This document shows, in pieces, positions 12,453 to 53,486 of a stretch of 64,000 bases of DNA. Numbering within the stretch: position 1 is the stretch's first letter; every line of letters begins with the position of its first letter. Location of the stretch: NCBI GenBank assembly GCA_963828395.1, contig CAWHED010000005.1, forward strand, positions 9,290 through 73,289, written 5' to 3'. Below the pieces are notes generated by a model. The model searched no databases and was not told the origin of the DNA. It saw only the letters and a list, made by a program, of their open reading frames with translations. The position numbers were made by a program, and so were the translations under genes. Source of the DNA: an uncultured Bacteroidales bacterium. GTDB lineage: Bacteria; Bacteroidota; Bacteroidia; Bacteroidales; VadinHA17.

Positions 12453-12483
12453 TAAGTTAGGACTATTTTATAATATGGCATCA

Positions 12484-15868: not shown

Positions 15869-15869
15869 T

Positions 15870-16628: not shown

Positions 16629-16731
16629 ATAATCAGTTGATTCGATAACCGCAGATCCGGCAGTGGCGGCTGCGTCCGTAAATTCTCCTGACCCTCAGAC
16701 TTTAGACTTTAAAGACTTCAAGGACTTTCGA

Positions 16732-18281: not shown

Positions 18282-18638
18282 ATGATCAATGAATTGTTTA
18301 ATAGATATTGTCACAGGTGTCATGGCCAAAGACTTTTACTATGACAAATATACTAAAACCTCTATGAGGTATTTAGTAAAACTTAACATATTATTCTACA
18401 ATACCTTATGCGCTATGCGCATTGTATTTACACAAAATCAAAGAGATTCTGATTTCAAAATTCGTTCCTTCAACGGTTGTATAGACCCCTATCAACAATA
18501 TTGCTATTTTCCAAGGGTCCACTGATTAACTTCCTTTTCTTTATAATGATATGTAATTTTAATATCGACAATGCATAGTATATTTATTCGTTAATCATAT
18601 TAACCTTAGTTGTGGTGAAAATACCGAAAGGTAAAATT

Positions 18639-19719: not shown

Positions 19720-19739
19720 TACAACCTCTCTGAAAACAG

Positions 19740-20840: not shown

Positions 20841-20912
20841 GGCGCGTTCCTCTAACGGATAGGAGTTCGGTTTCTCACACCGACAATAGCAGTTCGATTC
20901 TGCTACGCGCTA
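20841..20912 (+). tRNA. tRNA-Glu (anticodon CUC)
   Basis: I folded a 72-nt cloverleaf by hand. The acceptor stem is GGCGCGT/ACGCGCT with G1-U72, and the D stem is CTCT/GGAG with a GG loop. The anticodon stem is TCGGT/ACCGA with loop TT-CTC-AC. The variable loop is 4 nt, and the T arm is AGCAG-TTCGATT-CTGCT. No CCA is encoded. Confidence 0.85.
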
Positions 20913-20947
20913 CAATTTTAATCCGGGATTAATTTCGACATTAAAGC

Positions 20948-21518: not shown

Positions 21519-22786
21519 CTATTTCGGATTCATCATGCTCGGTTTTCCCTCAAGCTGTGCAGCCGCATCAACACTGAAGGCGCCGCTGGTAACTATCTCT
21601 TCGCCTTCTGTCAGGCCGTCAGTAACCACATAACTTTCTCCGAGCATCGGGCCCAGTCCAATTTCACGTATTTTAAAGACCGGTTCATCAGTATCCGGTT
21701 GTTTTACATATACGATGGAACGCTTGCCGGTCCATAAGACTGCAGATTTAGGAATTACCAGGTTATCACGGTATTTCATCAGATTTGAAGAGACAATGCC
21801 GGTTGCGAACATCTCGGGTTTGAACTTGCCGGACTGATTTGCCATTTCGACCCTTACTTTAGCCACCCGGGTGACCGGATCAATTACGGGGTCAACAAAA
21901 ACAATATTGGCCGAAAAATTCTCCCCGGGCAACGACTGAAGTGTGAATGAGATTTTTTCTCCTTTTTGCAGGAATTGGAGGTCACTTTCATAGGCATCGA
22001 ACATGACCCACACTCTTGAGAGATCGGCAATATCAAATAAAACCGTGCCCTGTGAGACATAATCACCGGTATTAACCCTCCTTGAGGTAACAATGCCGCT
22101 CGAATTCGATGTAATATCAACGGTATTCTGAACAGCTCCCGATGCCTCAATATTTGCGATCTGATCGTCCGTGAGCTTCCATTGGTGAAGTTTTTCTTTG
22201 GCTGCTTCGTATATTGCCGGTTGTGATCTCTTTGGTTTTAGCCGCTTCCAGCAGCTCCTGCTGTGCTGTGACCAGTTCGGGAGAATAAATCTGCGCCAGC
22301 ACCTGTCCTTTTACTACGGATTCACCGGTGAAGTTTACCGCCAGCCGATCTATCCTGCCCGGCACATGTGCAACCTGGCTCTGCAACAATCTTTCATCTG
22401 CCTGTACATTTCCGTAAAGCCTGATTTCCTTTACCGGGTTTTGCTTTGAAACCACAGTAGTAAGTACATTGGCCAACTGGGCTGCTTCCGGAGTGAGATG
22501 TATAGCCATCGGGATCGACTGATGCAGAACTGTTCTGAACAAGAGGGATCAGATCCATACCGCAGATCGGGCATTTGCCCGGTTCGTCCAGGCGTATCTG
22601 CGGGTGCATGGCGCAGGTCCATATTGTACCCTGAACTACTTCTGATGGGTGATTATGTTTCTCCCCGTTTTTTTGCGATGGATGAAAGAACAGCCAGCCC
22701 AAAAAGACACCAAGTATCAGTAACAGGCTGTATTTCAAATATTTATTTGAAAATATCTTAAACTCCAGAGCTTTTTCATTGTACAT
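21519..22786 (-). pseudogene. CusB-like efflux RND periplasmic adaptor with an N-terminal metal-binding CxxC domain, two frameshifts
   Basis: Fragments 22394..22831, 22147..22542 and 21519..22013 (plus its start-less upstream extension) contain WTCAMHPQIRLDEPGKCPICGMDL, HVPGRIDRLAVNFTGESVVKGQVLAQIYSPEL and SGIVTSRRVNTGDYVSQGTVLFDIADLSRVWV. Frame changes are near 22504 and 22221. The 1268 nt equal 3n+2. Confidence 0.85.
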
Positions 22787-22791
22787 CGAAC

Positions 22792-24240
22792 TTATTGTAT
22801 TTGTGAATTTGCCATTAATCGATTTAGCCACGCAATGGCTGTATTGTAGTCAGCAACAGCCTCGACCTGCCTTAGTTCATAGTCGAGCATCTGCTGCTGT
22901 ACGCGCAGAACGTCGGTAAGTCCGGATGAAGATGTTGAGAAGCTTTTTAACATGAGATCGAAAGACTGTGATGCCAGCTGAGACTGATTTTTATATAGCT
23001 CCATTCTGCGCCCGGCATCACGGAACATCTGCATGGCGTTATAATATTCAGTCTGCAATGCATTGACAGATGCCTCGTAATTTTGAGATGTGGCAGTCTT
23101 CAGCAGTTCAGCCTCACTTTTCATTGCATTGTATTTTTTCCGGTATATCGGCAGAGTGACAGAAACCATTGGCATGATCATGTCCGCACCATTCATGGCA
23201 GATTTGGACATCATGTTTTTGTTGATCAATGAATAATTCAAACCCAGACCAACCATCGGATAACCCATCGAGGTAACCATTTTCTTACGCGCATCAATGG
23301 ACTGTTTTTCAAATTCAAGCATACTGAGCATAGGGTTTCTGGCAAGCATACTGTCTGACACTGCAATCAGTGATAAACCAAGTGAATCGGCAGAAAGTAT
23401 TTCGTTTGTAAAAACCGGTGAATCAGGCAGCCTGTTGAGATAACCGTTGAACAGGGCGGCAACGCTTTGTTCCTGATTTTTCAGCAAGGCTATGCTGTTT
23501 TCAAGTTCACCGGCTTCCATCTGGATCCTGTACAAGTCTGCAAGTCCTGACCCACCTGTGGAGGAACCCATCGGAGCGGTCTGCATGGCTGACACGGGTT
23601 GACCTGAATTAACTGTCACGGCTTCACCCTGACTCCTTCCCATGGGCTGCATACCTGACGCGCTGCCCGGGTTGGCCGCCGGTGAGGAAACTGATGACAT
23701 CCCGGTGCCGGACGATGTTGCACCGGCACCTCCTACAGGCCCCGACTTGAATCTTACAAGTGCAAGACGTTCGATCGTTTTCAGAATTTCAAGATTTTTT
23801 TCTGAAATACTTATGCCCTGTCTGATTTTGTACAGGTCGTACCAGGTTTTCTGAACATCATAAAAGACCTGAAGTTTGGCATCGCGGAAAAGCTCAAGTT
23901 TTGCGTTTGCCATCAGGCTCATCTCATCTTTGGCATTCTTAAGAACACCAAACCATGGAAACATCTGCATCAGCCTGATGTCAGCAACCTGGTTCCCGCT
24001 GACAAGCTCCATCGGCTTCAGAAACACCCCAAGACTTAACTCGGGATCTGACAGACTCCCGACCTGCGGAATTTTTTGAAGGGCTATCTGGTACTCAGTG
24101 AATTTCTGCAACACGGCAGGATTGTTTTTAGCAGCGATCTCCAGGTACTGAAGAAGCGAATCAGGATACTGCTGGCCCTGACTCACAAGCCAGCTGCCCG
24201 ACACAATTACTGTAAGCAGTATTTTTTTATATGTTTTCAT
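22792..24240 (-). CDS. TolC-family outer membrane efflux protein with a Met/Ser/Gly-rich insert
   Basis: The signal peptide is MKTYKKILLTVIVSGSWLVSQGQ, followed by two OEP-type repeats. The start overlaps the CusA stop. Confidence 0.85.
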   Translation of the reverse strand: MKTYKKILLTVIVSGSWLVSQGQQYPDSLLQYLEIAAKNNPAVLQKFTEYQIALQKIPQVGSLSDPELSLGVFLKPMELVSGNQVADIRLMQMFPWFGVLKNAKDEMSLMANAKLELFRDAKLQVFYDVQKTWYDLYKIRQGISISEKNLEILKTIERLALVRFKSGPVGGAGATSSGTGMSSVSSPAANPGSASGMQPMGRSQGEAVTVNSGQPVSAMQTAPMGSSTGGSGLADLYRIQMEAGELENSIALLKNQEQSVAALFNGYLNRLPDSPVFTNEILSADSLGLSLIAVSDSMLARNPMLSMLEFEKQSIDARKKMVTSMGYPMVGLGLNYSLINKNMMSKSAMNGADMIMPMVSVTLPIYRKKYNAMKSEAELLKTATSQNYEASVNALQTEYYNAMQMFRDAGRRMELYKNQSQLASQSFDLMLKSFSTSSSGLTDVLRVQQQMLDYELRQVEAVADYNTAIAWLNRLMANSQIQ

Positions 24241-27200
24241 TTTTATTTTCCGGTTGATTATCAATAACCTGGTCAGCCAAAATGTGTTTATGACTTACGG
24301 CTCTTTCCCTCCACATAGCCTGAAACAGGGGCACGACGAAAATTGTCATTACCTGTATTATCATTCCTCCGAACATCGGGATGGCCATCGGGACCATAAT
24401 GTCTGCTCCTTTCCCTGTAGATGATAGTACGGGAAGCAGTGCAATTACAGCGACAGCCGTGGTCATCATAGCCGGACGTACCCTTTTTTTCCCGGCCATG
24501 ACCACGGCTTCACGGACATCATGGACGTTACCGGGTTTTTGATTTTCAAACACCTGATGAATATACGTACCCATAATCACACCGTCGTTTGTGGCAATAC
24601 CGAAAAGAGCAATAAAACCGACCCAAACCGCTACACTCAGGTTAATGGTATGCATCTGGAACATATCCCGGAGGTTTAATCCTGCAACGGAGAAGTTCAT
24701 GAACCAGTCCTGTCCGTATAGCCACAGCATCAGGAAGCCGCCCGAAAAAGCTACAAAAACACCCGAGAAATGAATGAATGATGCCGTAATAGTACGGAAC
24801 TGGAAAAACAATAAAAGAAAGATAATCATGAGGCTTACGGGGATGACAATGGCCAGTCTCTTTGTTGCTCTTATCTGATTTTCATAATTCCCCGCAAATT
24901 TGTAAGTCACTCCGGCAGGAAGCGTAATTTCTCCGGAGTCAATTTTGCCCTTCAATACCTCCGTGGCTTCTTCTACCACATCAACCTCGGCTTTTCCTTC
25001 CAGTTTATCAAAGATGACATACCCGACAAGGAAGGTATTTTCACTCCTGATCATCTGGGCGCCACGGGTATAATCAATATCCGCTATTTCCCCGAGAGGT
25101 ATCTGGGAGCCATTCATTGCCGGAACAAGGATCCGTTTCAGGTCTTCCGGGTTATCACGCAGCTCACGGGCGTATCTTACTCTTAACGGGAATCGTTCCC
25201 TGCCTTCGACCGAGGTTGAAAGTGTCATTCCACCGACGGCAACCTGTAATATTTCCTGAACCTCGCTTACCGTCATTCCATAACGGGCCATTGCTTCCCG
25301 GTTAAGTTTTATCTCAAGATAGGGTGCACCGACGGCGCGGTCGTAGAACACTGCGGAAGCTTTAACTGACGGCACCTCTTTCAGCGCCTTCTCGAGCGCC
25401 AACCCCGCTTCTTCAATTTTATCAAGATCCGGGCCGTACACCTTTAGGCCCATCGGGGCACGCATACCTGTTGAAAGCATGACAAGCCGTGTCTCTATGG
25501 GCTGAAGTTTGGGAGCAGAGGTCAGACCCGGTATATCCGTCACTTTGACAATCTCATTCCATATATCAAGGGGTTTTCTGATCTGCGGCCGCCACTGCCT
25601 GAAATACTCTCCCTTTTTATCCGGAATGAGGCTATCAGCCGGAATAACCCTGAATGCTTCTTTCTGAGGATTGTAAGTCGTGCCGTCGCTAAGGAGATAG
25701 CTGCCGTCCCTGTCGACTTTGAACTGCCTGCGATGACCGTTCTCATCCAGAATATATTCGGAACGGTAATTGATAGTATTTTCGAACATCTGTACCGGTG
25801 CAGGATCAAGGGCGGAGTTTACCCGTCCCCATTTCCCTACGGCCACCTCTACCTCAGGTATGGCTGACAGCCGTTTATCAAGTGTCTCGATATATTTAAG
25901 GTTCATCTCAATACCGGTATGCGGCATGCTTGTAGGCATCAGAAGATACGATCCCTCTGAAAGTGACGGCATGAATTCCTTGCCGGTGCCGGGGAATGCC
26001 CTTACTGCACCCTGCCAGGCTGATGTCTGCCGGAAACTTTTCCATCCGGCTTTTTCGGCTCCGGAAGCAATAAAACCAAATATTTTATCCACACCCTGCC
26101 ATACCAGGAGGCCAAAAAACAAAGTAAAAGCCGGTATCATCAGGAACTTCCATTTATTGCGCAATGCCCACCGGAGTATCTTTTCGTAATAATGGACCAG
26201 AGACATCAGGGCGAACAGAATTACCGCTACAATACCGGCAACGAATAAAAAGTTAGCGATCCGGCTGTTGTGGGCGCCAAGCGGCAGCCATTCAACGGAC
26301 AGATACCATGTTGCAACCAGTACAGTGAGGCCAATGTTGATATAGTTTGGATATTCCCTGCGTTTTTCAGGCCACCTGTAATCAAGAAGGTTATTTATTC
26401 CCAATGCAGTTAAGGCCAGTACCGGCCATGTGTGCCAGATAATCGCGAAAACTATCCCGGCAACTATCAAAGCGCCGTTCCATATCTTCTTAATTTTCTT
26501 AGCATCAAAACGGATATTGAAGAAAATATGCACAAGTGTTGGCAGTACAACTATTCCCAGCAGGAATGCCGCAATAAGGGCAAAGGTCTTTGTCCAGGCA
26601 AGAGGGTGGAACATTTTCCCCTCCTGTGCCTGCATTGCGAAGACGGGAAGAAAACTTACTATTGTGGTTGCAATGGATGTGACAACGGCAGCCCTGACCT
26701 CCGTTGTTGCATCGTAAATCACCTGCATTAGTTTTTTACCGCGTATTCCCTTATTCTCAGGCATTTCGAGATGCCTGAGAATATTCTCCACATCAACAAT
26801 CCCGATATCAACCATTACACCAATAGCTATGGCAATTCCTGACAGGGCTACAATATTGGCATCAATGCCGAAAAAGCGCATCAGAATAAAAGTCATTAAA
26901 ACGCCTAACGGCAATAACCCGGCTACAATCAGTGAAGCCCTGAGGTTTATCACCAGGACAATAATCACGATTATAGCAATGAGGATTTCGTGTGAGAGGG
27001 CAGACTGAAGGGTTCCGATTGTTTCCTTAATGAGTCCTGTCCTGTCATAAAAAGGTACTATGGTGACTTTTGAAACGGATCCGTCAGGCAGTGTTTTTTG
27101 AGGCAATCCGGCTTCAATTTCCTTTATTTTATCTTTAACATTATTAATTACCTCCATCGGGTTTGAGCCATATCTGGCAACTACAACTGCTCCGACGGCT

Positions 27201-28099
27201 TCCGAACCTGATTTATCAAGGCCTCCGCGGCGCGGGGCAGGGCCAAAAGATACATTTGCCACATCCTTAATTCGTACCGGAACATTGTTCCGGGCCGCAA
27301 CGACAGATAATTCAAGGTCATTAAGGCTCCTGACATAACCCAGTCCGCGAATGATATACTCCACGTTATTCAGCTCAATGGTCTCAGCGCCGATATCGAG
27401 GTTGCTGTTCTTAACGGCATTCATGACATCCATGACGGATACATTGTAAGCCTTAAGGGCATTAGGGTCAAGATCAACCTGGTATTCTTTGGTAAAGCCT
27501 CCGGCTGATGCTACTTCGGAGACTCCCTCTGCGGCTGAAAGGCTGTATTTAACGTAAAAATCCTGGATGGTCTTGAGTTCTGCGGGATCCCAGCCTCCGT
27601 TAGGTTTTCCGGTTTTCGGGTCGCGTCCTTCAAGAGTATACCAGAATATCTGACCCAGGGCGGTTGCGTCCGGGCCGAGGGTTGGCTGCACTCCCTCAGG
27701 TAATGTTCCCGGAGGCAGGGAATTAAGTTTTTCAAGGATCCTTGACCTGCTCCAGTAGAACTCTGCATTATCTTTGAATATGATGTAGATGAATGACATC
27801 CCGAACATGGATGTGCTTCGGATTGTCTGAACACCCGGGATCCCAAGGAGGGCTGTGGTCAGCGGATAACTTATCTGGTCCTGGATATCCTTCGGTGACC
27901 GCCCCATCCATTCGGTAGCAACTATCTGCTGATTCTCGCCTATATCGGGAATTGCGTCAACCGGCACAGGGTTACGGGGCAGAAAACCCGTCTTCCATTC
28001 AAACGGTGCGGTGACCAGGCCCAGGATGACAAAGGCTGCCAGAAGGATAAATGTCACCAGCCTGTTGTAGAGAAAATATTTTACTAACCGGTTAAACAT
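24227..28099 (-). CDS. CusA/CzcA-family heavy-metal efflux RND permease (1290 aa, extended form)
   Basis: The N-terminus MFNRLVKYFLYNRLVTFILL and conserved RND blocks are present, for example GIAIAIGVMVDIGIVDVENI and GIATNDGVIMGTY. It is intact. Confidence 0.9.
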   Translation of the reverse strand: MFNRLVKYFLYNRLVTFILLAAFVILGLVTAPFEWKTGFLPRNPVPVDAIPDIGENQQIVATEWMGRSPKDIQDQISYPLTTALLGIPGVQTIRSTSMFGMSFIYIIFKDNAEFYWSRSRILEKLNSLPPGTLPEGVQPTLGPDATALGQIFWYTLEGRDPKTGKPNGGWDPAELKTIQDFYVKYSLSAAEGVSEVASAGGFTKEYQVDLDPNALKAYNVSVMDVMNAVKNSNLDIGAETIELNNVEYIIRGLGYVRSLNDLELSVVAARNNVPVRIKDVANVSFGPAPRRGGLDKSGSEAVGAVVVARYGSNPMEVINNVKDKIKEIEAGLPQKTLPDGSVSKVTIVPFYDRTGLIKETIGTLQSALSHEILIAIIVIIVLVINLRASLIVAGLLPLGVLMTFILMRFFGIDANIVALSGIAIAIGVMVDIGIVDVENILRHLEMPENKGIRGKKLMQVIYDATTEVRAAVVTSIATTIVSFLPVFAMQAQEGKMFHPLAWTKTFALIAAFLLGIVVLPTLVHIFFNIRFDAKKIKKIWNGALIVAGIVFAIIWHTWPVLALTALGINNLLDYRWPEKRREYPNYINIGLTVLVATWYLSVEWLPLGAHNSRIANFLFVAGIVAVILFALMSLVHYYEKILRWALRNKWKFLMIPAFTLFFGLLVWQGVDKIFGFIASGAEKAGWKSFRQTSAWQGAVRAFPGTGKEFMPSLSEGSYLLMPTSMPHTGIEMNLKYIETLDKRLSAIPEVEVAVGKWGRVNSALDPAPVQMFENTINYRSEYILDENGHRRQFKVDRDGSYLLSDGTTYNPQKEAFRVIPADSLIPDKKGEYFRQWRPQIRKPLDIWNEIVKVTDIPGLTSAPKLQPIETRLVMLSTGMRAPMGLKVYGPDLDKIEEAGLALEKALKEVPSVKASAVFYDRAVGAPYLEIKLNREAMARYGMTVSEVQEILQVAVGGMTLSTSVEGRERFPLRVRYARELRDNPEDLKRILVPAMNGSQIPLGEIADIDYTRGAQMIRSENTFLVGYVIFDKLEGKAEVDVVEEATEVLKGKIDSGEITLPAGVTYKFAGNYENQIRATKRLAIVIPVSLMIIFLLLFFQFRTITASFIHFSGVFVAFSGGFLMLWLYGQDWFMNFSVAGLNLRDMFQMHTINLSVAVWVGFIALFGIATNDGVIMGTYIHQVFENQKPGNVHDVREAVVMAGKKRVRPAMMTTAVAVIALLPVLSSTGKGADIMVPMAIPMFGGMIIQVMTIFVVPLFQAMWRERAVSHKHILADQVIDNQPENKNENI

Positions 28100-43563: not shown

Positions 43564-45111
43564 TTAAAAACAAGCCCTTATTTCCCTGCGGTAGAAAGCA
43601 TGCTTTTCTTTTGCTTCTGACTTTATTTTTTCAATGGTTTGCTTCCCTTCTTCCAGGTAGCTACCTGATTCAAACAGGTCGAATAGTATGGCCAGGGTGT
43701 CAAGAATATAAAGATTGCTTTCGGAAGCCGTTTTCCTGAATTTTTCCCGGAGCAACGCAATTCCAGGTTTTGAAATACCGAAATGGTCATGAACCGCATA
43801 GTAATTCCTTGCCCACATTGATAAATTGGTCACTCCTTCGGCACTCCACATCCATTCAGCAAAGCATGCAATGGCTGTGGAATAGCAATCGTTAAGCGAT
43901 ACGGTATTAAAGTCATAATCAAGGTATCCCGGCCTGCCCTTCAGCCTGCCTTGTTCACGCAGCTCTTTTTCGACACGGGTTTCAAAGTACGGCATCATCT
44001 TAAGAAAAGAGACAGGTGTGTAGCCATCGCTGCATATCTTTCTCAGGAATCCGAGGTTTTCCCTGAGGGAGTCGTAAGTTGTACCAGGCTGGAACATCAT
44101 AAAGCCGTAATTAAAACTTGTGTCTGAATCCTTGAGCAGCTTTATGCACTCAAGGTTTCCGGCAACAGTGGTTCTCTTATTAAGTCTGGTTAATCCCTCA
44201 TCAGTACCGTCTTCCAGGCCGATGAACACCAGGAATAGTCCGTGCTGTCTCATTAATTCCAGGATGTCTGCATCTATCTCATCAGGTCTGCAGTTGATTT
44301 TCCAGATTATTTTATCATGCAATCCTTTTTTCACCAGTTCATTGCAGAATGATTTTATCCAGTCATTTTCACCCCTGGCCTTAACAGGAAAGTCATCATC
44401 ATTAAACAGGTATACTGAGCATCCTTTATCACGGTAGAGGTACTCCATTTCCCTCACTACCATTTCAGGGTTTCTTGAGCGTTTTGTGGGTCCTGATGGC
44501 GTCCTGTAGAATTCCTTTGCATTGCAGTAAGAGCAGTTATAAATGCAGCCCCGACCTGCAAGGATGGTAACATATTTCTTTCCGTATGCGTACTCTCTCA
44601 AGGGCGGTCGTAAAGGAAACGGCAGTCTGTCAAGATCGCGCTCCAGGGGACGTAGTGGTGTCTCAATAATCTTGTGATTCTCTTTGTAGGCAATACTCAT
44701 TATACTTTTCCAGTCCTTGCCTGAGTTGAGGCAACTAACCAGTTCCAGGAGGGTATACTCACCCTCAAATCGTATGATGGAATCCAGGCCGGGGATAAGG
44801 CTGAAAAGTTCCTGTGGCCGCAGGCTTGCAAAATGGCCACCGGCAGTAAAATGGCAGCTGATCCCTTCGCTCCTCAGTAATTTTACGAGCCTGGCGAACT
44901 CGTCAATGTACCCTTCATAGATAACTGAGAAACCGACAACAAGTGGATTGCTTTTTTTCAGATCTTCCAGGATCTCTTCATTTCGCAACCGGAAATCAAT
45001 CATCCTGGTTTCAATGCCGGCCTGGTTCAGTACTGCCGACAAATATCCTACTCCGAGGTTAGAATAATCCCCGAAAACAATAAATATCACCGGCTTTGCG
45101 AATAATCCCAA
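43564..45111 (-). CDS. B12-binding domain-containing radical SAM protein
   Basis: The N-terminal Rossmann-like strand is KPVIFIVFGDYSNLGVGYLSAVL, and the radical SAM motif is GRGCIYNCSYC. The only start before the first conserved strand is the TTG at 45111. Confidence 0.85.
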   Translation of the reverse strand: MGLFAKPVIFIVFGDYSNLGVGYLSAVLNQAGIETRMIDFRLRNEEILEDLKKSNPLVVGFSVIYEGYIDEFARLVKLLRSEGISCHFTAGGHFASLRPQELFSLIPGLDSIIRFEGEYTLLELVSCLNSGKDWKSIMSIAYKENHKIIETPLRPLERDLDRLPFPLRPPLREYAYGKKYVTILAGRGCIYNCSYCNAKEFYRTPSGPTKRSRNPEMVVREMEYLYRDKGCSVYLFNDDDFPVKARGENDWIKSFCNELVKKGLHDKIIWKINCRPDEIDADILELMRQHGLFLVFIGLEDGTDEGLTRLNKRTTVAGNLECIKLLKDSDTSFNYGFMMFQPGTTYDSLRENLGFLRKICSDGYTPVSFLKMMPYFETRVEKELREQGRLKGRPGYLDYDFNTVSLNDCYSTAIACFAEWMWSAEGVTNLSMWARNYYAVHDHFGISKPGIALLREKFRKTASESNLYILDTLAILFDLFESGSYLEEGKQTIEKIKSEAKEKHAFYRREIRACF

Positions 45112-45114
45112 ACC

Positions 45115-45315
45115 TTACTTCCAGAAGGATAGGTCTTTCACTGCGATACAATATTCATGATTTGCCCTGGCAATTTTCTCTGCAAGTTCCAGCTGCAGGC
45201 GGAGTATTGCTTTAATCTGATCTTCTGGCAGCCCAAGTTTTGCAAACTCATCGGGATGCATTTTGAATATCGGAGGATTAATTCTCATAGCTTCCCTTTC
45301 TTCATCATCGTACAT
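45115..45315 (-). CDS. hypothetical 66-aa protein
   Basis: Sequence: MYDDEEREAMRINPPIFKMHPDEFAKLGLPEDQIKAILRLQLELAEKIARANHEYCIAVKDLSFWK. It is in the same frame as the radical SAM ORF, separated only by TAA plus one codon. Confidence 0.5.
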   Translation of the reverse strand: MYDDEEREAMRINPPIFKMHPDEFAKLGLPEDQIKAILRLQLELAEKIARANHEYCIAVKDLSFWK

Positions 45316-45351
45316 GATTTCCTGTTTTTTTAAGGTTAAATAATTTGAATA

Positions 45352-47826
45352 TTATTTGGTAGTGCCGGTCCTTTTGCCGGTCCTTGCTTTAAATTCAGGC
45401 GTTTCTGCCAGTTTTTTCCATTCAGGATCAACTTTCATAAGGTTCAGTGAGAAGAATGAAGGGTTGTTGAGGAGAAAGTCCACCTGCCGGGTTGCATTTA
45501 CAAAATCACCTGTCATGACGTATATCTTTCCCAGATTAATTATCATGTCGCTCTTTGTAATGGCGTCATCACTTGCCAGCTCTACAGCTGTTTTTCCTGC
45601 GATGAGCGCATCGGTCACATTTCCTGAGCCGGCATATGCCAGGCCGCAGTTACTGTAGGCATAATAGTTTTCCGGATTATCCATAATCATCTGTTTGTAC
45701 ACGACAACCGCAGAATCGTTGTATGCCCTCGCCATATGCTGATCATTCAGCAGGCTGTAGAGCCAACCCGATGTTAAGAATCTTAAGCCGGGATATCCAA
45801 GTTCCTCATCTGTCGATGACTTTAATTCCTTTAATGCATCCGGGTACCTGCCTTCATAGATGTACATAAGGATCCGCAGATATTCATGTCTTTCACCTGT
45901 TCTTACGAGTGAAGTATCCAGTACTTTTCTTGCCTCAATTGTATTTCCGTATTTCAGAATCAGGACTTCAATCAGGCTGCTGTATGGTCCCGACCAACCG
46001 GGCACTGCATCAATAGCCTTACGGTAGAATGTGACAGCTGTGTCATAGCTGTGCATATAGGTAAAGGAAATCCCTATATTGATCAGTGCAAGGGCGTCCT
46101 GCGGCTCTTTTTCAATAGCTTTTATTATAAGATCCTGCGACTGTTTCCATTCACCCGTTTTACGGTATACCATCGCCATATAAAAGGACGGTTGGTAATT
46201 ACCCGGATCCATTTCTGCAGCCGTCCTGAAATGGGTTATGGCTTTCTGGTAATCTTCCGTGCAGTAATAATAGTAGAATCCAAGAGCCACCTGTGCATCA
46301 GCCAGGTCTTTATCAAGTTCAAAGGCCTTGTCCGCATCAGACTTGCATTTATCTATATGGGATTCATCAAGCTGGCCGGTGTGAAGGCCCCATGAACGCG
46401 CAATGGAACGTTTGGCATATGCCAGAGCAAAGTTGGGGTCATTCCTGATGGCCCTGTCATACATCATAATGGCGGAAGAAAAGTTTGAAGTCAGGTTTAA
46501 GGAGTCAATGAATTGATTTCCCGAGAAATAATAAGACAATGCTTTTTGAGATTCAACATTGGCAGAAAGGTAATTCATGTATGCGACAGCATTTTTAGTG
46601 GGATTTTTCTCAATTTTTGCTTTTTCTTCAGGCAGGGGTACCGTCTTCAGGTTTGAAGCTATCTGTTCGGCAATATCAGCATGCATTACTGACATGTCAG
46701 CCCATGCAGGCTCATAGGTTTTACCCCATATCTGCTCATTTTTCTTAGCGTCTATCAGATTCACGCTTATCCGGAACTTCTCATCAGTTTTCAGGTAACT
46801 GCCTTCTATAATATAGTTGGCATTCACCTCCTTGCCTATTTCCGGGAAGTTTTTCAGATTACCCTTATAACGTAACACCGCATTTATCGGACGTAAACTG
46901 AATACTCTTATATTGCTGAGCTGATTGATCAACTCAGCGGCAATAGCATCACCGAGCCATATATTTTCCTTATCATCTCCAAATTGTTCGAATGGCAAAA
47001 CCGCAATCGATTTTTCACCGTGCCTGCCCAATCCTGCTTCAGTACCTGAAAACTTATAGATTGCATAAATGCCTGCCATAATCAACATAACTGTCATCAC
47101 CAGAATACCTCTCTTACGCCATGATACTGAATTTTTTTTGATGGCGCCTCCGGCATCAGTCTTTTTGGCCTCAGGCTCTTCCCTCAGCTCTCTTTTAAAC
47201 GGTCTGTCCTTATGCGTCAATGGCTGTTCCGGCTGAAGCGAGGAGATTATTTCCTTAACAGCGTTGGCAGTCTTATTGATCTGGTTACGGTATTTCGTCC
47301 CGCTCAGGTTTTTATTTTCATCATCTGCCGGAGTGAGCGGCCTGTTTACTCCGGGTTCCTTATATATGAAATCAATGGCCCTGAGAGTTCCCCCAAGTTC
47401 ATTCTCGACCATTTCCCTGTCTTCGGGATCAAGCTCATGGATCCGTACCGGCAATATCCTGTTTGCTACATTTCCGCTGTGCAGGGTGACTTTCAGTCCG
47501 AATCTGTCATGGGACGCCTGCGTGATAAAAGCCTTGAACTCATGCTCCCAGGCAAATGCATTGGAATCACAGTAGGTGTGTGAGATTACGGGAATAAAAA
47601 TCAGACATTTAAGCTTCTCTTTCAGAGATGCATCGACATCATGTGTCTCCAGAATGCCGTCATGTGGATTAATGTCGAAGTAGACACTTATCTCTTCCTT
47701 GAATGTCGACTCGAGCTCTCCCCTCAGGTTGTTAACAAAATCAGTGACCCAGCCGTCATGTTTGTTGTCCTTCTGGCGATAGCTGATAAAAATGTCATAT
47801 TCAAAACCCGGGACGAGGCTTGCCAT
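45352..47826 (-). CDS. TIR domain / single TM / TolB-N-like / TPR-repeat membrane protein
   Basis: The N-terminal TIR segment is YDIFISYRQKDN...IFIPVISHTYCDSNAFAWEHEF, and the TM segment is GILVMTVMLIMAGIYAIY. This is followed by SIAVLPFEQFGDDKENIWLGDAIAAELINQLS and multiple TPR-like repeats. The ATG is at 47826, and the listed ORF begins at a TTG at 47835. Confidence 0.85.
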   Translation of the reverse strand: MASLVPGFEYDIFISYRQKDNKHDGWVTDFVNNLRGELESTFKEEISVYFDINPHDGILETHDVDASLKEKLKCLIFIPVISHTYCDSNAFAWEHEFKAFITQASHDRFGLKVTLHSGNVANRILPVRIHELDPEDREMVENELGGTLRAIDFIYKEPGVNRPLTPADDENKNLSGTKYRNQINKTANAVKEIISSLQPEQPLTHKDRPFKRELREEPEAKKTDAGGAIKKNSVSWRKRGILVMTVMLIMAGIYAIYKFSGTEAGLGRHGEKSIAVLPFEQFGDDKENIWLGDAIAAELINQLSNIRVFSLRPINAVLRYKGNLKNFPEIGKEVNANYIIEGSYLKTDEKFRISVNLIDAKKNEQIWGKTYEPAWADMSVMHADIAEQIASNLKTVPLPEEKAKIEKNPTKNAVAYMNYLSANVESQKALSYYFSGNQFIDSLNLTSNFSSAIMMYDRAIRNDPNFALAYAKRSIARSWGLHTGQLDESHIDKCKSDADKAFELDKDLADAQVALGFYYYYCTEDYQKAITHFRTAAEMDPGNYQPSFYMAMVYRKTGEWKQSQDLIIKAIEKEPQDALALINIGISFTYMHSYDTAVTFYRKAIDAVPGWSGPYSSLIEVLILKYGNTIEARKVLDTSLVRTGERHEYLRILMYIYEGRYPDALKELKSSTDEELGYPGLRFLTSGWLYSLLNDQHMARAYNDSAVVVYKQMIMDNPENYYAYSNCGLAYAGSGNVTDALIAGKTAVELASDDAITKSDMIINLGKIYVMTGDFVNATRQVDFLLNNPSFFSLNLMKVDPEWKKLAETPEFKARTGKRTGTTK

Positions 47827-47913
47827 AACATCCAATTCATTGTGTTAAAGTTACGAAAGAGCTGGAGGCGAGTCAAATATATTTCCGCCGGCTTCTGCTG
47901 ACAGCCAAAGGGG

Positions 47914-49780
47914 TCAGATCCTGATACCGATGATTGTTATGTCATCGGTCTGATCTTCCTCTTTTTCCTCTCTCCACATAGCAATCTCTTCATATAGTCT
48001 GTCTCCCTGCTCAGGCATCGGCAAAGCACTTATCCGCAGCAGAAAGTCGCTAAGTCTTTTTCTGGTATACCTCTTATGTTTACTGCCGCCGAACTGATCG
48101 GAATAACCATCTGAACATAAGTATAATACATCAGTTTCTTTAAGCTGCAGCGTCCCGGTGATAAAGGTTTCGTCCTCCTTATCACTGCTGCCTTCCCTGC
48201 CAGCCATGGACTTAATCTCATTTATTCTGCCGTCAGTCACATGCAATAAACTGTTGCCGGTACCTGAAAAGGTAAGAAATCCGGTACGTGTATCCAGATT
48301 GCACAATGCGATATCCATATCATCCGATACGCCGTTCTCATGGAGATCCCTGTGAAGGAACCTGTGAACGCCCGAATACAGGTAATGCATGATATCGGAA
48401 GGGTTGCTTAGCTTCATAATGTTCACGGCCTGATCGAGTATTCCGTAACCAATGGTGCTTATCAGCGCCGCGGGGATACCATGCCCGGTACAGTCTGCCA
48501 GCGCAAAGATTATATGGTCATTGTCCCTGCTGAACAGGTAAAAATCACCGCTGACAATATCTTTTGGCTCATAGAAAACGAAACTGTCAGGGAAGCATTC
48601 CCTGATGTAAAGATCTTCAGGGAGGAAAGCCTTTTGTATATGCCGGGCATAATTATAGCTCCCCTGAACTTCCCCTATAGTCAGTTTGATTTTTTCACTG
48701 ACAGACCTGATCTTTTCATCGATCAGGGGAAAAGATGATGTGAGACCTCTTATCTGATCATTCAGCTCATTGGTTTCACATAACAATTTATGGATACTGC
48801 TCTGTGGCTTTATTGCATATGATAATTTGCTGATGCTTCCCGGCGAGACAGGATAGGCTTCGTAATTAATATCCTGAAGAAAAGCAGGTATAAGCCTTAC
48901 AAGCTCGCGGTCCTTTTCTTTTTCGGGCTCATCAAGCTCGTCGTACGGTACCAGACCCGGATGGATCTTCTTCACATCGTCTTTTGGTTTTACCATAAGA
49001 CCATCCGTTCAGTCTTTTCTCCCAGCTCCACCTGAGATGCTCAACTCTTGCCATGGTCTCAACCTCTTCGTCACCAATATGCAGGGCCAGGGGTTTAAAT
49101 CCCTTTTTAACAGCTCTGATCCTGTAACCAATTGCCAATAGCTTCGTTGGAATGTGAGCGGCATTGTCAATGTTTGAAAGCTGGAGTTCGGTGGGAAGAT
49201 CATTAAACTGCTGAATACCAACTCCTTTCTTAGCCGCACCACTGCCTGCCTGTTTTCTTATTTCATGAAGATACCTTGAGTGAATTGCCCTGGCAATTTT
49301 TTTGATCAGTGACATGCTCACCCCCTCAACCTCTTCGTGCCTGACGATCTCAAGGCCGGCTTCCTTCAGGCCGGAGGGTATCAGATAATTAAGCTCCCGG
49401 AAAAGGATCTTTCTCTCTTCCCGGTCACTCCTTTCCCGGAACCTGTCGAGATCCATCCTGACAAGGAGGGCAATCTCATCATCTGTAATTATACATGTCC
49501 TGCAAAACTCCCGGAAAGGACGCAGGAGAAGATTAAGCGACCTGAGTTTGACGGGTATGACAGAGGCATAGTCGTACCAAAAACTCTTTTCACTCCTGGT
49601 CAGGTCCGTAAAATTCTTAAGAAAAGAAACAGGATGGGCAAACAGCCCTGCTCTCTGCCTGATACCCTGATAGAGACCCTTTCCAACCGGATCAATGAAA
49701 TGTTTCTTAAAATCTGCCGGATCAATCTGTTCTTCGCTGATTATCCGGTTATCAGTATCATATATGTTTTTTGGTGACAT
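47914..49780 (-). pseudogene. RyR-domain protein fused to a PP2C/SpoIIE-type phosphatase, one frameshift
   Basis: ORFs 48932..49780 and 47914..48996 join as EHLRWSWEKRLNGWSYGKTK-DDVKKIHPGLVPYDELDEPEKEKDRELV (a RyR repeat) when one T of the T4 run at 48982-48985 is removed. The C-terminal part, GDFYLFSRDNDHIIFALADCTGHGIPAALIS, is SpoIIE-like. Confidence 0.85.
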
Positions 49781-49797
49781 CAGGACAGATAAAAATC

Positions 49798-50196
49798 CTA
49801 TTGTTCTTCCATTTCTATGAACTCAAACGGAATTTTTACAATCTGAGACATCTCAATACCGGCTTCAAGCATATCGGTATCGTTTTTCATATAATACCAT
49901 TTTACCGAGGCATTGAATTCCTTCGCATGCAAACGGGCCAGAACCTTGCATATATCGAGGATGCATTTTGCAGAGGCGGAATTGAAGTATTCAAAATTGA
50001 AATTGAAGATTATGGGATCCTTTCTTTTCCCTGATAAGACGAAGTCACCGAAATCGTTCATCCAGGCAAGGACCGGTCCGTAAAATTCCCGCACATCCTG
50101 AGGTCTTGACTCGCCTGCGATCTCCAGAAAGTACTCCTCATGGTCGAGTATGACCTTCGGGGAAAAGACAGTCGGACTGATAATTAACTTTTCCAT
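49798..50196 (-). CDS. DUF1987 / SiaC-family regulatory phosphoprotein
   Basis: 132 aa with SPTVFSPKVILD, IAGESRPQDVREFYGPVLAWM, FNFEYFNSASAKCILD and VKWYYMKNDTDMLEAG. These follow the SiaC family pattern. Confidence 0.8.
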   Translation of the reverse strand: MEKLIISPTVFSPKVILDHEEYFLEIAGESRPQDVREFYGPVLAWMNDFGDFVLSGKRKDPIIFNFNFEYFNSASAKCILDICKVLARLHAKEFNASVKWYYMKNDTDMLEAGIEMSQIVKIPFEFIEMEEQ

Positions 50197-50399
50197 TAAT
50201 AAACCTGTAATATGCCTTCCGGATCAAAATTATAAAGGTCCGCCGCTAAAACCGGCAAAGGAGTCGTTAAAAATATTTCTCCGGTTATATATTTATTATT
50301 AACTTGAATAACTGAAACAAAGATAAATTTTCCGGCGAAATTGGTTTAGGGATTAATATTAATATTTCAAATTCTAAATATTCTTAATTACCCCGGGCA

Positions 50400-53300
50400 A
50401 TGAGTGAACCGATCCTGAAAGCATTAATACAGTTATTTGCCCTGATAAGCGATGTTCATGATGACAGGGAGATTTCAAGCAGGGGCAGGGACATTGTGAG
50501 ACTGTTCCTGGCCAGGCATCTGAGCAATGAGCAGGTTCTGAAATACATGGAGATGTTTGATGAGTACATCAGAATCTACCACCCTGATAACCTCTCGAAG
50601 GGAAGCATTCAGGACAGGAAACGCACATCACTCACAGCAATGAGGATCCTGGCCATATGCGAAAAGATTAACGAGGAACTTCAGCAAAAACAAAAAATCT
50701 ATGTGATGGTCCAGATGATGGACTTCATTTCGTTCAGTGCCGATATCACCGAGAAAGAACTGGATTTTCTTGAGACGGTTGCGACCGCTTTTAACATACA
50801 CAAGACAGAATACGATGACCTCAGATGCTTTATCCTTGAACCCGTAAGACGAAAAGTGAGAAAAGACAGACTCATGGTTGTTGACAATAATAATGAGTTT
50901 GACAGGAAGGGCATCAAATATCTTTTCAATGAGAATTTGAAGGGCAGGATACTTTTCCTCCATATCGTCAGCACAAATACTTTCATACTGCGTTATTCAG
51001 GCAAGCAGGATCTTTTTCTTAACGGCCAGAATATCTTCCCCGGGCAGACTTATGTTTTTGACCACGGATCATCAATAAGAGGATCACTCACGGATACGAT
51101 CTATTATAATGATGTAGCTGGAGTGTTCACGGGGGAAGCTTTCAAGCTTAAAATATCGCTCGACGCCAGGGATATCAGCCTCAGGTTCAAAGACAGCGAA
51201 AACGGACTGCAAAAGCTCAGCATTCATGAGGATTCCGGAAAGCTTGTCGGCATACTGGGAGGCAGCGGTGTTGGAAAATCAACCCTGCTTAATGTCCTCA
51301 ACGGGATGACAAAACCGGATAGCGGCGAAGTCCTGATTAACGGTTATAACCTTTATTCCCCGGAAGGGAAGGAAAAGCTTAAAGGCGTCATCGGCTATGT
51401 GCCTCAGGACGATCTGCTGTTCGAGGACCTGACCGTGTTCCAGAACCTGTACTACAATGCAAAAATGTGTCTTGATAACCTTGGCGAAACAGGCATAGTG
51501 GAAGCGGTGGACAGAATACTTGTTGATTTCGACCTTGATGTCATAAGAGATCTTAAGGTAGGCAACCCGCTGAATAAGATCATAAGCGGGGGACAGCGCA
51601 AAAGACTGAATATTGCACTGGAACTTATCCGGGAACCGACGATACTCATTGTTGACGAGCCCACATCAGGACTGTCATCGGTTGATGCCGAGGCGGTAAT
51701 GAATATGCTGAAGGAGCAGACCTACAAAGGCAGGCTGGTGATAATAACCATTCATCAGCCGGGCTCTGACATTTACAAGATGTTTGACAGGATAATGATC
51801 ATGGACAAAGGTGGATATATGATCTACTACGGTAATCCCACCGAGGCTGTCATCTGGTTCAAGACAAGGGCAAATCATGCCAATGCCTTTGAAGATCAGT
51901 GTATTGCATGTGGCAATGTGAATACTGACCAGCTCCTGCAGATCATAGAAGCAAAGGTAGTCAACGAATATGGAAAACCTACGCATATCAGAAGGGTTAC
52001 CCCTGCGGAATGGGCTGAAAGCTTTAAGCCGGAGGCTGAAAAAATCAGTCATAAAAGCAGCCTTGCTGAGGAACCTTTACCTGAAAACGACTATTCCATC
52101 CCGGGCCTTTTCAGGCAATCTGTGATATTTTTTATCCGTGACTTCCTGTCGAAGCTTGCAGACAGGCAGTATATCCTCATAAGCCTTCTCGGAGCGCCCC
52201 TGCTGGCACTGCTTCTTGCTTATTTTACCAGGGACACATCAGGTAATACCTATAATTTCAGCGAAAATGAGAACCTGCCCGCCTATATCTTCATGTGCGT
52301 GATCACTGCCTCTTTTATGGGACTGATAATCAGCGCCGAGGAAATAGTAAAAGACCGCAAAATACTTAAAAGAGAATCATTCCTTAACCTCAGCTGGTTC
52401 AGTTACCTGAATTCTAAAATACTCCTGATGTTCATGATTTCAGCCATCCAGACCATATCTTTTATCCTGATAGGCAACTTTATTCTGGGCATCAGGGGCA
52501 TGACCCTTACATACTGGATAGTATTATTCAGTACATCCTGCCTTGCCAATATGATCGGGCTGACCATTTCCTCAGCATTTAATTCAGTTGTTACAATATA
52601 TATTCTCATACCGTTCATTATCATACCCCAGCTGTTGTTCAGCGGCGTGATGGTAAAGTACGACAGCCTCCATACAGCTGAACGTTACACTAACGAGTAC
52701 GTTCCTGTAATAGGTGATCTGATGCCTGCCCGCTGGTCATTCGAGGCACTTGCTGTCGAACAGTACAAGAGCAACAGGTACGAAAAGAACTTCTTCGGGT
52801 ATGATATGGAGATCAGCCAGAATAACTGGTATGCCTCATTCCTTATTGAAGCCCTGAAGAAAGACCTGTGGCTGTGCCGTCAGTACAAAGACAGCATCAG
52901 ATATCGTGACATCATTATGGGCAAATTCAGAAAACTGACCACCTATACCCGGCAACTTTCAGGTCTGGCAGGTTTTGGCCCGCCTCCTGACGGGCTGATG
53001 GCTTCGCTGAACATAATCGGATTTAATACTGCCGTTGCTGATTTGGAAGAAAAATACCTTGACAGCCTGGCGCGGCAGTTTTTAATTATCAGAAAGAAAA
53101 ACATTGATCTGAAAGAATCAGTTGAAAAATCACTTGTGCAAAAATTGGGCAAGGAGGAATTTCAGGATCTGAAAGACGAATATGCCAACAAAAAGCTCAG
53201 GGAGATCGTTCTGGACGAGTTTAACCAGAAGAAAACTATCGAGACAGCTGATAAAATTGTCCAGAGATATGAGCCTGTTTATATGAAGCCTGTCTCCCGG

Positions 53301-53486
53301 AATGGCCGTGCGCATTTTTATGCGCCGTACAAGCAACTTGGAGAAAAGAGGATTGAAACTTTATGGTTTAATATTATTGTTTTATGGTTAGCCTCGCTTC
53401 TGTTATATATTGCATTGTATTATAAGCTTATACAGAAAGCAGTCGGTTTCAGGTTTCACTTCAGGGTAAAAAAGGCTTTGAAATAA
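50400..53486 (+). CDS. ABC transporter with fused ATPase and ABC-2 permease, plus helical and FHA-like N-terminal domains
   Basis: 1028 aa with Walker A GGSGVGKST, signature ISGGQRKRLNIALEL and Walker B ILIVDEPTSGLS, followed by about six TM segments. About 270 residues precede the ATPase, including LFLHIVSTNTFILRYSGKQDLFLNGQNI. Confidence 0.85.
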   Translation: MSEPILKALIQLFALISDVHDDREISSRGRDIVRLFLARHLSNEQVLKYMEMFDEYIRIYHPDNLSKGSIQDRKRTSLTAMRILAICEKINEELQQKQKIYVMVQMMDFISFSADITEKELDFLETVATAFNIHKTEYDDLRCFILEPVRRKVRKDRLMVVDNNNEFDRKGIKYLFNENLKGRILFLHIVSTNTFILRYSGKQDLFLNGQNIFPGQTYVFDHGSSIRGSLTDTIYYNDVAGVFTGEAFKLKISLDARDISLRFKDSENGLQKLSIHEDSGKLVGILGGSGVGKSTLLNVLNGMTKPDSGEVLINGYNLYSPEGKEKLKGVIGYVPQDDLLFEDLTVFQNLYYNAKMCLDNLGETGIVEAVDRILVDFDLDVIRDLKVGNPLNKIISGGQRKRLNIALELIREPTILIVDEPTSGLSSVDAEAVMNMLKEQTYKGRLVIITIHQPGSDIYKMFDRIMIMDKGGYMIYYGNPTEAVIWFKTRANHANAFEDQCIACGNVNTDQLLQIIEAKVVNEYGKPTHIRRVTPAEWAESFKPEAEKISHKSSLAEEPLPENDYSIPGLFRQSVIFFIRDFLSKLADRQYILISLLGAPLLALLLAYFTRDTSGNTYNFSENENLPAYIFMCVITASFMGLIISAEEIVKDRKILKRESFLNLSWFSYLNSKILLMFMISAIQTISFILIGNFILGIRGMTLTYWIVLFSTSCLANMIGLTISSAFNSVVTIYILIPFIIIPQLLFSGVMVKYDSLHTAERYTNEYVPVIGDLMPARWSFEALAVEQYKSNRYEKNFFGYDMEISQNNWYASFLIEALKKDLWLCRQYKDSIRYRDIIMGKFRKLTTYTRQLSGLAGFGPPPDGLMASLNIIGFNTAVADLEEKYLDSLARQFLIIRKKNIDLKESVEKSLVQKLGKEEFQDLKDEYANKKLREIVLDEFNQKKTIETADKIVQRYEPVYMKPVSRNGRAHFYAPYKQLGEKRIETLWFNIIVLWLASLLLYIALYYKLIQKAVGFRFHFRVKKALK

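Follow-up and report, generated by a model that had tools for sequence, protein, structure and literature searches.

In a 64,000-nt window of contig CAWHED010000005.1 (GCA_963828395.1), which derives from an uncultured Bacteroidales bacterium and on whose coordinates all positions below are given, a SiaC-type partner switch lies beside a TIR-domain membrane sensor and a cobalamin (B12)-dependent radical SAM enzyme, and dozens of genomes of Bacteroidales and Rikenellaceae share this conserved module. Judged from the sequences, two linked units can be recognised. The first would be a partner switch formed by a SiaC-like protein and a RyR-domain PP2C phosphatase (RyR-PP2C), divergently paired with an ABCG-type exporter, and the second would comprise a membrane protein with TIR, transmembrane (TM), TolB_N-like and TPR regions (the TIR/TPR protein), a small protein and the radical SAM enzyme. 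We tentatively read the whole as a vertically inherited signalling module, giving this interpretation rather less than an even chance. On this reading it would be a partner-switch signalling system of which the input, the output and the accessories are all new.

The five open reading frames (ORFs) that share the minus strand occupy 43564-50196 and encode, in order, the SiaC-like protein, RyR-PP2C, the TIR/TPR protein, a 66-aa product and the B12 radical SAM enzyme, with intergenic gaps of 17, 87, 36 and 3 nt provided that the TIR/TPR gene begins at the ATG at 47826, a start common to all orthologues. An earlier note on this DNA had described the same five genes and gaps, and these stand; it had also treated RyR-PP2C as a single ORF, which does not hold, the gene being present in the window as two overlapping ORFs. 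The exporter gene lies beyond the five genes considered in that note and is divergent from the SiaC gene.

Conservation and linkage of the two units

Around phosphatase homologues of 56-86% identity the gene order is kept, with the ABC gene on the opposite strand followed by SiaC, RyR-PP2C, one to three TIR/TPR genes, the small ORF and the radical SAM gene, and the flanks differ. The full order is retained in about 25 species-level genomes with unrelated flanks, and because it recurs in many genomes in such surroundings the five-gene arrangement is far above chance. The earlier proposal that the genes form a conserved linked module is borne out, synteny rather than its absence being found across genomes with differing flanks.

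A first scan, of species-level genomes, was anchored on the radical SAM gene and covered 80 loci (loci are cited by L numbers) using custom hidden Markov models (HMMs) and 10-kb flanks. The TolB_N/TPR gene lay directly 5′ of the radical SAM gene in 64 of the 80 loci, and RyR-PP2C lay within 10 kb of it in 32. Among the 47 radical SAM loci with full flanks, 24 had both TIR and PP2C, six had TIR only, none had PP2C only and 17 had neither (Fisher 4e-8, a value that ignores kinship). RyR-PP2C was thus never found beside a TIR-less sensor, in agreement with the earlier suggestion that the SiaC/PP2C switch is linked to the TIR protein. On a rough tree of the radical SAM enzymes, which the inheritance of the module follows, RyR-PP2C and TIR are jointly absent in at least two to three clades. 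The TIR-less sensors begin with a conserved ‘ELKRRKV/FRV’ motif and carry, where the TIR domain would otherwise be, two to three predicted TM segments; in the 20 loci listed with such sensors (L029, L037, L040, L043, L044, L046, L050, L051, L057, L059, L064, L067, L068, L070, L073, L074, L076, L078, L083, and L084) neither SiaC nor RyR-PP2C was found nearby.

A second scan, of metagenome contigs, was anchored on the phosphatase (L089-L168). SiaC lay directly 5′ of the phosphatase in 62 of 67 loci. Where the contig extended at least 3 kb downstream, a TIR/TPR gene was present within the flanks in 26 of 32 loci; with at least 9 kb the figure was 18 of 19, and the radical SAM gene was seen in 10 of 19. 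For each switch a genome has between one and four TIR/TPR paralogues in tandem, the TIR heads of which are near-identical.

These patterns bear on the possibility that the two units are functionally independent and are neighbours by shared ancestry, a SiaABC-like-regulated exporter lying next to a unit of TPR protein, small protein and radical SAM enzyme. Such independence would suit the loci in which unrelated genes are inserted between units that still lie close together (L006, L031, L041, L042, L047, and L075), the unlinked state of L088 and L143, in which ABC, SiaB, SiaC and PP2C genes are found with no TIR/TPR or radical SAM gene within 10 kb, and the occurrence of the small-protein/radical SAM pair by itself in other phyla. 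It sits poorly with a linkage that outlasts inversion and transposition of the units relative to each other (L026, L027, L049, L155, and L165), with the finding that RyR-PP2C depends strictly, and in one direction only, on a sensor that bears the TIR domain, and with the presence of the TIR/TPR gene no more than 10 kb from the phosphatase in 18 of 19 loci. Moreover, TIR products and RyR domains can now be connected mechanistically (PMC13232231), and we consider independence of the two units improbable. Loci with only one unit do mean that a TIR-PP2C link, if real, must act in trans.

In L155 and L165 the radical SAM gene lies 3-61 nt from the RyR-PP2C gene in an arrangement like that of L026 and L027, and direct contact of the units in reversed order is thus possible.

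The SiaC and PP2C partner switch

The SiaC-like (DUF1987) protein of 132 aa is encoded at 49798-50196 on the minus strand and was correctly assigned in the earlier note, scoring 104.9 bits against Pfam SiaC (PF09345, cut-off 24.5). With the NCBIfam SiaC equivalog it reached 56 bits, under the cut-off of 150, and it is consequently regarded as a member of the family and not an orthologue. In P. aeruginosa SiaA and SiaB switch SiaC at its phosphosite T68 (PMC7647112), the target being bound by unphosphorylated SiaC (PMC7647112, PMC8457831). Alignment with the structures of that protein (PDB 6KKO/6K4F, E 1e-8) pairs the phosphosite peptide LLYLNTSSIK with FEYFNSASAK and T68 with Ser73 (codon 49978-49980), making Ser73 the predicted phosphosite, and the ‘FNS’ triplet is kept in the SiaC orthologues examined.

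The phosphatase gene (47914-49780, minus strand) encodes a protein of 621 aa once repaired, with a SiaA-like catalytic domain. The SpoIIE/PP2C domain scores 66.8 bits in Pfam, and the PP2C region (47920-48522) matches the SiaA-PP2C structure 6K4E with an E-value of 4.7e-31. Conservation across 38 orthologues extends to the metal-binding motifs GDFY, DCTGHG, DGYSDQ and DDIT. Among NCBIfam profiles SiaA (NF038263) scores highest, at 165 bits against a cut-off of 700, with only positions 377-657 of the 658 in the profile aligned.

In the window the phosphatase is split between an ORF at 48932-49780, which carries the first half of the RyR repeat, and one at 47914-48996, which carries the second half and the SpoIIE/PP2C domain; the earlier description of a RyR-PP2C protein thus holds for both domains and fails for the intact reading frame. 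The site of the +1 frameshift is ‘GGTAAAACCAAAAGAC’ (48979-48994, minus strand), which lies inside the RyR repeat and is one base longer than in all intact orthologues, and blastn comparison with L001, L002, L007, L008 and L085 gave a single 1-nt gap at these positions in each of the five relatives. Removal of one A restores the 621-aa phosphatase, which 621-aa homologues match at 94, 87 and 86% identity over 100% of its length. Three other genes of the window, all on the minus strand, are split as well, encoding a class I/II aminotransferase (9162-10410), an AMP-binding enzyme (10730-12452) and a CusB/HlyD-like protein with a heavy-metal-binding domain (22147-22831), each as overlapping same-strand ORFs with a Pfam match running on from piece to piece. 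Close relatives stem from long-read metagenome-assembled genomes with many broken genes. Because three further genes are split likewise, the frameshift is probably an assembly indel, and a true pseudogene or phase variation is less likely.

No SiaB kinase was found in the window by phmmer or with a 12-sequence SiaB profile, and no G[GAS][DE]EF motif was present in any six-frame ORF of the window, nor any GGDEF family in the neighbourhood tables examined. The earlier note had remarked on the absence of both; this is right within the 64 kb, but the kinase belongs to the system, since in sister clades a SiaB domain is fused to SiaC (NF038262, 104 bits, above the cut-off of 85), a separate SiaB gene precedes SiaC in L088, and SiaB was found in 34 of 55 loci of the phosphatase-anchored metagenome scan. 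In the clade of the window SiaB is encoded elsewhere or lost. Taken together, the SiaC/PP2C pair appears to be a genuine SiaABC-type partner switch.

The predicted TIR sensor

The membrane sensor (45352-47826, minus strand) is a protein of 824 aa, in which a cytoplasmic TIR-like domain (47332-47802) is followed by a predicted TM helix (47056-47106), a periplasmic TolB_N/FlgO-like domain (46648-47013) and a TPR array (about 45562-46461). Many Pfam TPR families match the array, in support of that part of the earlier description; the TolB_N-like part stays below threshold, FlgO scoring 20.8 bits against a cut-off of 22.6. Matches of the sensor region to TIGR04510, a ‘peptide modification system cyclase’ (35.7 bits), PRK10153 and PRK12370 were also weak.

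The earlier assignment of a TIR domain fares differently at the level of sequence and of structure. In sequence the domain misses the Pfam threshold, TIR_2 scoring 19.9 bits (E 1e-3) against a cut-off of 28, and with PADLOC it matched ThsB (over 60 residues, E 1.6e-3) and bSEFIR at E-values of about 1e-3. A search of PDB sequences with a profile of the domain returned no TIR protein, and hhalign against one bona fide TIR_2 protein gave a probability of 3%, which is uninformative because of the low diversity of the profile (Neff). The representative-library search gave near-identical N-terminal domains only, distant TIR relatives being out of its reach. As to structure, an AlphaFold model from an alignment of 30 close sequences was unusable (pLDDT 49.7), whereas that from 112 sequences was usable (pLDDT 84.2, pTM 0.83) and showed strands and helices in alternation. 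In a Foldseek search of the PDB with this model, ranks 1-29 were all TIR domains (E 2.5e-4 to 6e-3, probability 0.99-1.00), including PdTIR (the best, 2.5e-4), BtTir, MyD88, TLR1, RUN1, Roq1, BtpA and SARM1. The modelled structure therefore supports a TIR fold for the N-terminal domain of the sensor.

Residue E96, in ‘WEHEF’, is invariant in the 112 sequences and sits at the start of model helix 91-105. The catalytic Glu of NADase-type TIR domains lies at this position, which makes E96 a candidate for that residue. The domain family comprises 1350 representatives at 50% identity and is always N-terminal in proteins of about 700-900 aa; the TIR domain remains more than 60% identical while the remainder of the sensor drops below 50%.

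The RyR repeat of the phosphatase

The canonical RyR (PF02026) repeat of the phosphatase is encoded at 48874-49060 on the minus strand. PDB RyR Repeat domains match it with a best E-value of 1.6e-24, and PF02026 is annotated in all 120 of the phosphatase homologues listed. A degenerate first repeat, which Pfam does not detect, may precede it at residues ~160-235.

A preprint of May 2026 has reported that phage RyR-domain (PF02026) proteins either bind, at nanomolar affinity, or cleave 2′cADPR and 3′cADPR, the cyclic ADP-ribose (cADPR) isomers that Thoeris TIR proteins produce (PMC13232231). The ligand residues of one such protein, RyDEP, are H75, W78, H100 and D117, which are said to be conserved family-wide (PMC13232231). 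In the phosphatase H248, W251, H273 and D290 (numbering of the repaired protein) are each at least 97% conserved in 38 orthologues, and their spacing (+3, +25, and +42) is identical to that of the RyDEP residues. This spacing, together with the statement of family-wide conservation in the preprint, is the basis on which we equate the two sets of four residues. The 139-aa ‘Ryr domain-containing protein’ 35tm_A, which is probably RyDEP itself, also matches, with an offset that fits RyDEP numbering. By analogy with RyDEP, we infer that the RyR repeat of the phosphatase may bind a cADPR isomer.

Directly 3′ of the radical SAM gene in L017, on the same contig as L005, lies a nucleotide-signalling island (11667-19855 of that locus) encoding proteins of the architectures TrkA_N-RyR (639 aa), TIR_2 alone (135 aa, 60.8 bits), RelA/SpoT-TPR-SLOG-RyR (873 aa) and DUF4062-STAND NTPase (690 aa). 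Here the TIR_2 protein is flanked by the TrkA_N-RyR and RelA/SpoT-SLOG-RyR proteins, an independent case of TIR and RyR as neighbours.

Both TIR and RyR domains are tied to cADPR immune signalling, and in principle the module could be a Thoeris-type anti-phage defence system in which a TIR sensor acts on a nucleotide-activated effector; the ThsB match in PADLOC and a match of the radical SAM enzyme to the candidate PDC-M51A (41 bits), both weak, point the same way. PADLOC nonetheless gave no defence-system membership for the module, and no ThsA-type effector (SIR2/SLOG or Macro) was found in it with Pfam or NCBIfam. The flanking genes are of the housekeeping kind (PBP1a, M48 peptidase, aspartyl-tRNA synthetase, and uracil phosphoribosyltransferase), the G+C content of the module is that of its surroundings, its inheritance along the radical SAM tree is vertical, the sensor has a periplasmic domain, and the output is a partner switch and not a toxin. 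A defence role accordingly seems very remote.

The ABCG-type exporter

The exporter gene (50400-53486, plus strand) encodes a protein of 1028 aa, in which Pfam finds ABC_tran (103.6 bits) followed by ABC2_membrane (80.1 bits), and TIGR00955 (White/ABCG-like) scores highest in NCBIfam, with 254 bits, short of the cut-off for that family. It is separated from SiaC by a divergent intergenic region of 203 nt (50197-50399), presumed from the coordinates to be a shared control region. A scan for sigma-70 promoters and terminators, which is not meaningful for Bacteroidota, gave counts equal to those of shuffled sequence. Ahead of the ABC domain lies an N-terminal extension of ~265 aa with a mean column identity of 75%, for which no match was found in Pfam, NCBIfam or the PDB. 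The first half of the N-terminus (50400-51200) is helical and the second half beta-rich (‘GRILFLHIVSTNTFILRYSGKQDLFLNGQNIFPGQTYVFDHGSSIRG’). An FHA-like pattern seen by eye in the extension is unsupported, with no Pfam FHA match and no PDB match.

In the phosphatase-anchored metagenome loci with at least 2.5 kb upstream the ABC gene was divergent from and adjacent to SiaC in 48 of 48, and in the first scan it was divergent from SiaC in every assessable locus except L028. In L028 (1-1566) no ABC gene was detected 5′ of SiaC, the contig starting 1.5 kb upstream. The earlier note had placed the TIR protein and the radical SAM enzyme in the position of the output gene, a view that these counts displace: the exporter is the constant neighbour of the switch, whereas the TIR and radical SAM genes are separable from it (L088 and L143), and the exporter is for this reason the better candidate for the place that SiaD holds in the Pseudomonas system. 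That the exporter is in fact the output of the switch is possible, although doubtful.

The small protein and the radical SAM enzyme

The last two genes of the minus-strand series encode a small protein of 66 aa (45115-45315), present as the earlier note had it, and 3 nt further a cobalamin-dependent (class B) radical SAM enzyme of 515 aa (43564-45111). The latter assignment, also made earlier, is confirmed, with Pfam scores of 72.3 bits for B12-binding and 66.9 bits for Radical_SAM and the cluster motif CIYNCSYC (CxxxCxxC) at residues 189-196 (44524-44547). The best NCBIfam match is BchE (148 bits), far under its cut-off of 481, and no equivalog cut-off is reached; the nearest solved structure is OxsB (E 1e-22).

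The small protein has no family match in Pfam or NCBIfam. After its motif ‘PIFKMHPDE’ (45253-45267) a long helix is predicted, and a custom HMM gives it 100 bits in the window. Nearly every one of the 80 loci has an ORF of 58-95 aa just 5′ of the radical SAM gene, the stop codon of the one often overlapping the start codon of the other, and these ORFs share a motif of the form aromatic-x-Met-(Asp/His)-Pro followed by a helix of 40-50 aa. The pair also occurs in contigs of Desulfobacterales, Ignavibacteria, Atribacterota, NC10 and Acidobacteriota that lack the other parts of the module, the motif being ‘EWVMDPPP’ in most of the ORFs from outside the Bacteroidota. Since it is found across phyla in this form, the pair is taken to be the oldest layer of the module, and the small protein is probably either the substrate or an obligate partner of the enzyme. 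As to the coupling of the radical SAM enzyme to the phospho-switch that had been suggested earlier, the linked module stands, but across phyla the main partner of the enzyme is the small ORF. In L037 (9507-9967) and L051 (9476-9955) the radical SAM gene follows a tandem of two small ORFs, of the ‘PIVWYLD/PIVWFVD’ type, and in L078 and L084 the small protein is longer (~110 aa) and contains a CCCCC run.

The same gene pair invites a different explanation, that of a peptide signalling or bacteriocin cluster resembling those of ribosomally synthesized and post-translationally modified peptides (RiPPs), with a precursor modified by the radical SAM enzyme, exported by the ABC-2 transporter and sensed by the TPR receptor, and with SiaC and PP2C tuning export or immunity. 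The universal coupling of the small ORF to the enzyme and its conserved motif would fit such a cluster, as would the presence of an ABC exporter near the radical SAM gene even in lineages that lack the switch (L059 and others) and the weak resemblance of the sensor region to TIGR04510. On the other hand, no leader-peptidase, RRE or SPASM domain was found with Pfam or NCBIfam and a GG-type leader is absent, the layout of a conserved motif at the N-terminus and a long variable helix is unlike that of usual leaders and cores, and in other phyla the pair occurs with no transporter or TPR gene at all. We judge a cluster of this kind distinctly unlikely.

The proposed signalling route

From these domain identities, their linkage and their co-variation, the following route can be drawn. 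An envelope cue bound by the periplasmic TolB_N/TPR ectodomain would activate the cytoplasmic TIR domain, which would turn NAD+ into an ADP-ribose-derived nucleotide of the cADPR-isomer type. Binding of this nucleotide by the RyR repeat would alter the activity of PP2C, which by dephosphorylation would set the phosphorylation state of SiaC Ser73, and unphosphorylated SiaC would in turn bind or modulate a partner, most likely the N-terminal extension of the exporter. The exporter may carry what the radical SAM enzyme and the small protein produce; their link to the switch could be as an exported product or equally as a regulated target. The central chain, from TIR through nucleotide and RyR-PP2C to SiaC, is put forward tentatively, its likelihood as we see it lying a little below the balance of probability. 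The occurrence of tandem TIR/TPR paralogues with near-identical TIR heads for a single phosphatase would fit many sensors reporting to one reader by way of a diffusible signal.

The earlier note had proposed that signalling runs in the reverse direction, with the SiaC switch upstream and unphosphorylated SiaC gating the TIR protein or the radical SAM enzyme; the RyR domain would then sense another adenine nucleotide or metabolite. Such a direction would agree with the position of the switch genes, which lie 5′ of the TIR/TPR, small-protein and radical SAM genes on the same strand and are joined to them by the short gaps given above (17, 87, 36, and 3 nt), with the co-variation of the TIR domain with SiaC/PP2C, and with the proposal that SiaC-family proteins modulate adjacent proteins (PMC8457831). 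It is harder to reconcile with the separability of the TIR/TPR and radical SAM genes from the switch, from which the ABC gene is never parted, and with the one to four TIR/TPR paralogues per switch, which suit many sensors feeding one switch better. The direction from TIR to RyR-PP2C to SiaC is made the likelier by RyR domains with demonstrated affinity for the cADPR isomers that TIR proteins make (PMC13232231), and gating of the TIR protein by the phospho-switch is regarded as unlikely.

Several observations weigh against the route from TIR to SiaC. The phosphatase gene is frameshifted in this assembly and the 64-kb window holds no kinase. The TIR domain misses the Pfam cut-off, and the Foldseek TM-scores of its model are only 0.35-0.57. 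Conservation of H248, W251, H273 and D290 does not prove binding of cADPR, these being positions conserved family-wide, and the RyDEP evidence comes from a preprint on phage proteins (PMC13232231). The co-occurrence statistics for TIR and PP2C ignore phylogeny, the PP2C unit is found with no TIR/TPR gene within 10 kb in L088, L143 and L167, and several loci have the TIR/TPR and radical SAM genes with no PP2C unit within 10 kb. For the exporter the argument is one of adjacency, and its N-terminal extension is also found in lineages without SiaC.

Relation to known systems

With SiaABCD of P. aeruginosa the module shares a DUF1987/SiaC phosphoprotein in which a hydroxyl residue occupies the place of T68, a PP2C catalytic domain closest to SiaA and, in sister clades, a fused or adjacent SiaB-family kinase. 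It differs in having no GGDEF output (SiaD) and, in the window, no kinase, in the input of its phosphatase, which is a cytoplasmic RyR repeat instead of the N-terminal region of SiaA, and in its constant neighbour, the ABCG-type exporter; the scores with the NCBIfam Sia equivalogs are far under their cut-offs in the window. In its workings the module would resemble a SiaABC partner switch, yet it does not qualify as a SiaABCD system.

What it has in common with Thoeris and RyDEP (PMC13232231) is a TIR domain with a conserved Glu encoded together with a PF02026 RyR protein that keeps the His/Trp/His/Asp positions, and with Thoeris itself only the pairing of a TIR domain with a nucleotide-binding reader. 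Unlike these systems the module is chromosomal, vertically inherited and not part of an island, it has no ThsA-like effector, its TIR domain forms the cytoplasmic head of a membrane protein that senses the periplasm, and its RyR domain is fused to PP2C, where RyDEP is a free sponge or glycosidase. The order of TM, TolB_N/FlgO-like and TPR regions is shared with TolB_N-like/TPR receptors such as the TIGR04510 cyclase and CadC-like proteins, and a gene pair resembling a peptide-modification system adjoins it, but the head is a TIR domain in the module and a short multi-TM anchor in its TIR-less relatives. In common with the class B radical SAM enzymes OxsB, BchE and the RiPP C-methyltransferases, the enzyme has an N-terminal B12-binding domain, a radical SAM core and the CxxxCxxC motif, and it is set apart by a distinct helical C-terminal region of ~150 aa and by its obligate small-protein neighbour from an undescribed family.

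Rv1747 of M. tuberculosis is an ABCG-type exporter with the nucleotide-binding domain before the membrane domain and a long cytoplasmic N-terminus tied to Ser/Thr phospho-signalling. The exporter of the module has the same order of domains and a long N-terminal extension, in which Pfam finds no FHA domain, and here regulation would pass through a SiaC-like partner. The earlier note knew of no described system of this composition, and likewise a full-text literature search found no description of RyR-PP2C, of the TIR/TolB_N/TPR receptor, of the small-protein/radical SAM pair or of the whole composition, and DUF1987 itself was mentioned in a single paper.

Other features of the window

Away from the module the G+C content dips locally to 0.37 (against ~0.45 elsewhere) at 18001-20000, near a tRNA-Glu(CTC) gene (20841-20913), and this stretch may be an integration hotspot or foreign DNA. 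The split CusB-like adaptor gene belongs to a heavy-metal/resistance-nodulation-division (RND) efflux cluster (22147-28099, minus strand), which also encodes a 1290-aa pump of the AcrB family and an outer membrane factor.

Implications

To our knowledge, what is known of TIR domains and cADPR isomers in bacteria comes almost entirely from phage defence, and RyR domains have only recently been tied to cADPR isomers, and then only in phage counter-defence proteins. Independently of the signalling route, the small protein and the B12 radical SAM enzyme are an undescribed pair that extends across phyla. If the proposed route is true, it would give SiaABC-type switches a new input and a new output, it would be the first case of a bacterial RyR domain acting as a cellular receptor, and it would offer a tractable bacterial model of cADPR-RyR recognition, with an echo of the connection, long debated, of cADPR to the animal ryanodine receptor. 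In its broadest form, which we consider conceivable though on the doubtful side, Bacteroidales would use TIR-made ADP-ribose nucleotides as an ordinary, non-immune second messenger, with paralogous TIR receptors signalling to one RyR-PP2C and through the SiaC switch to the exporter and the small protein modified by the radical SAM enzyme.

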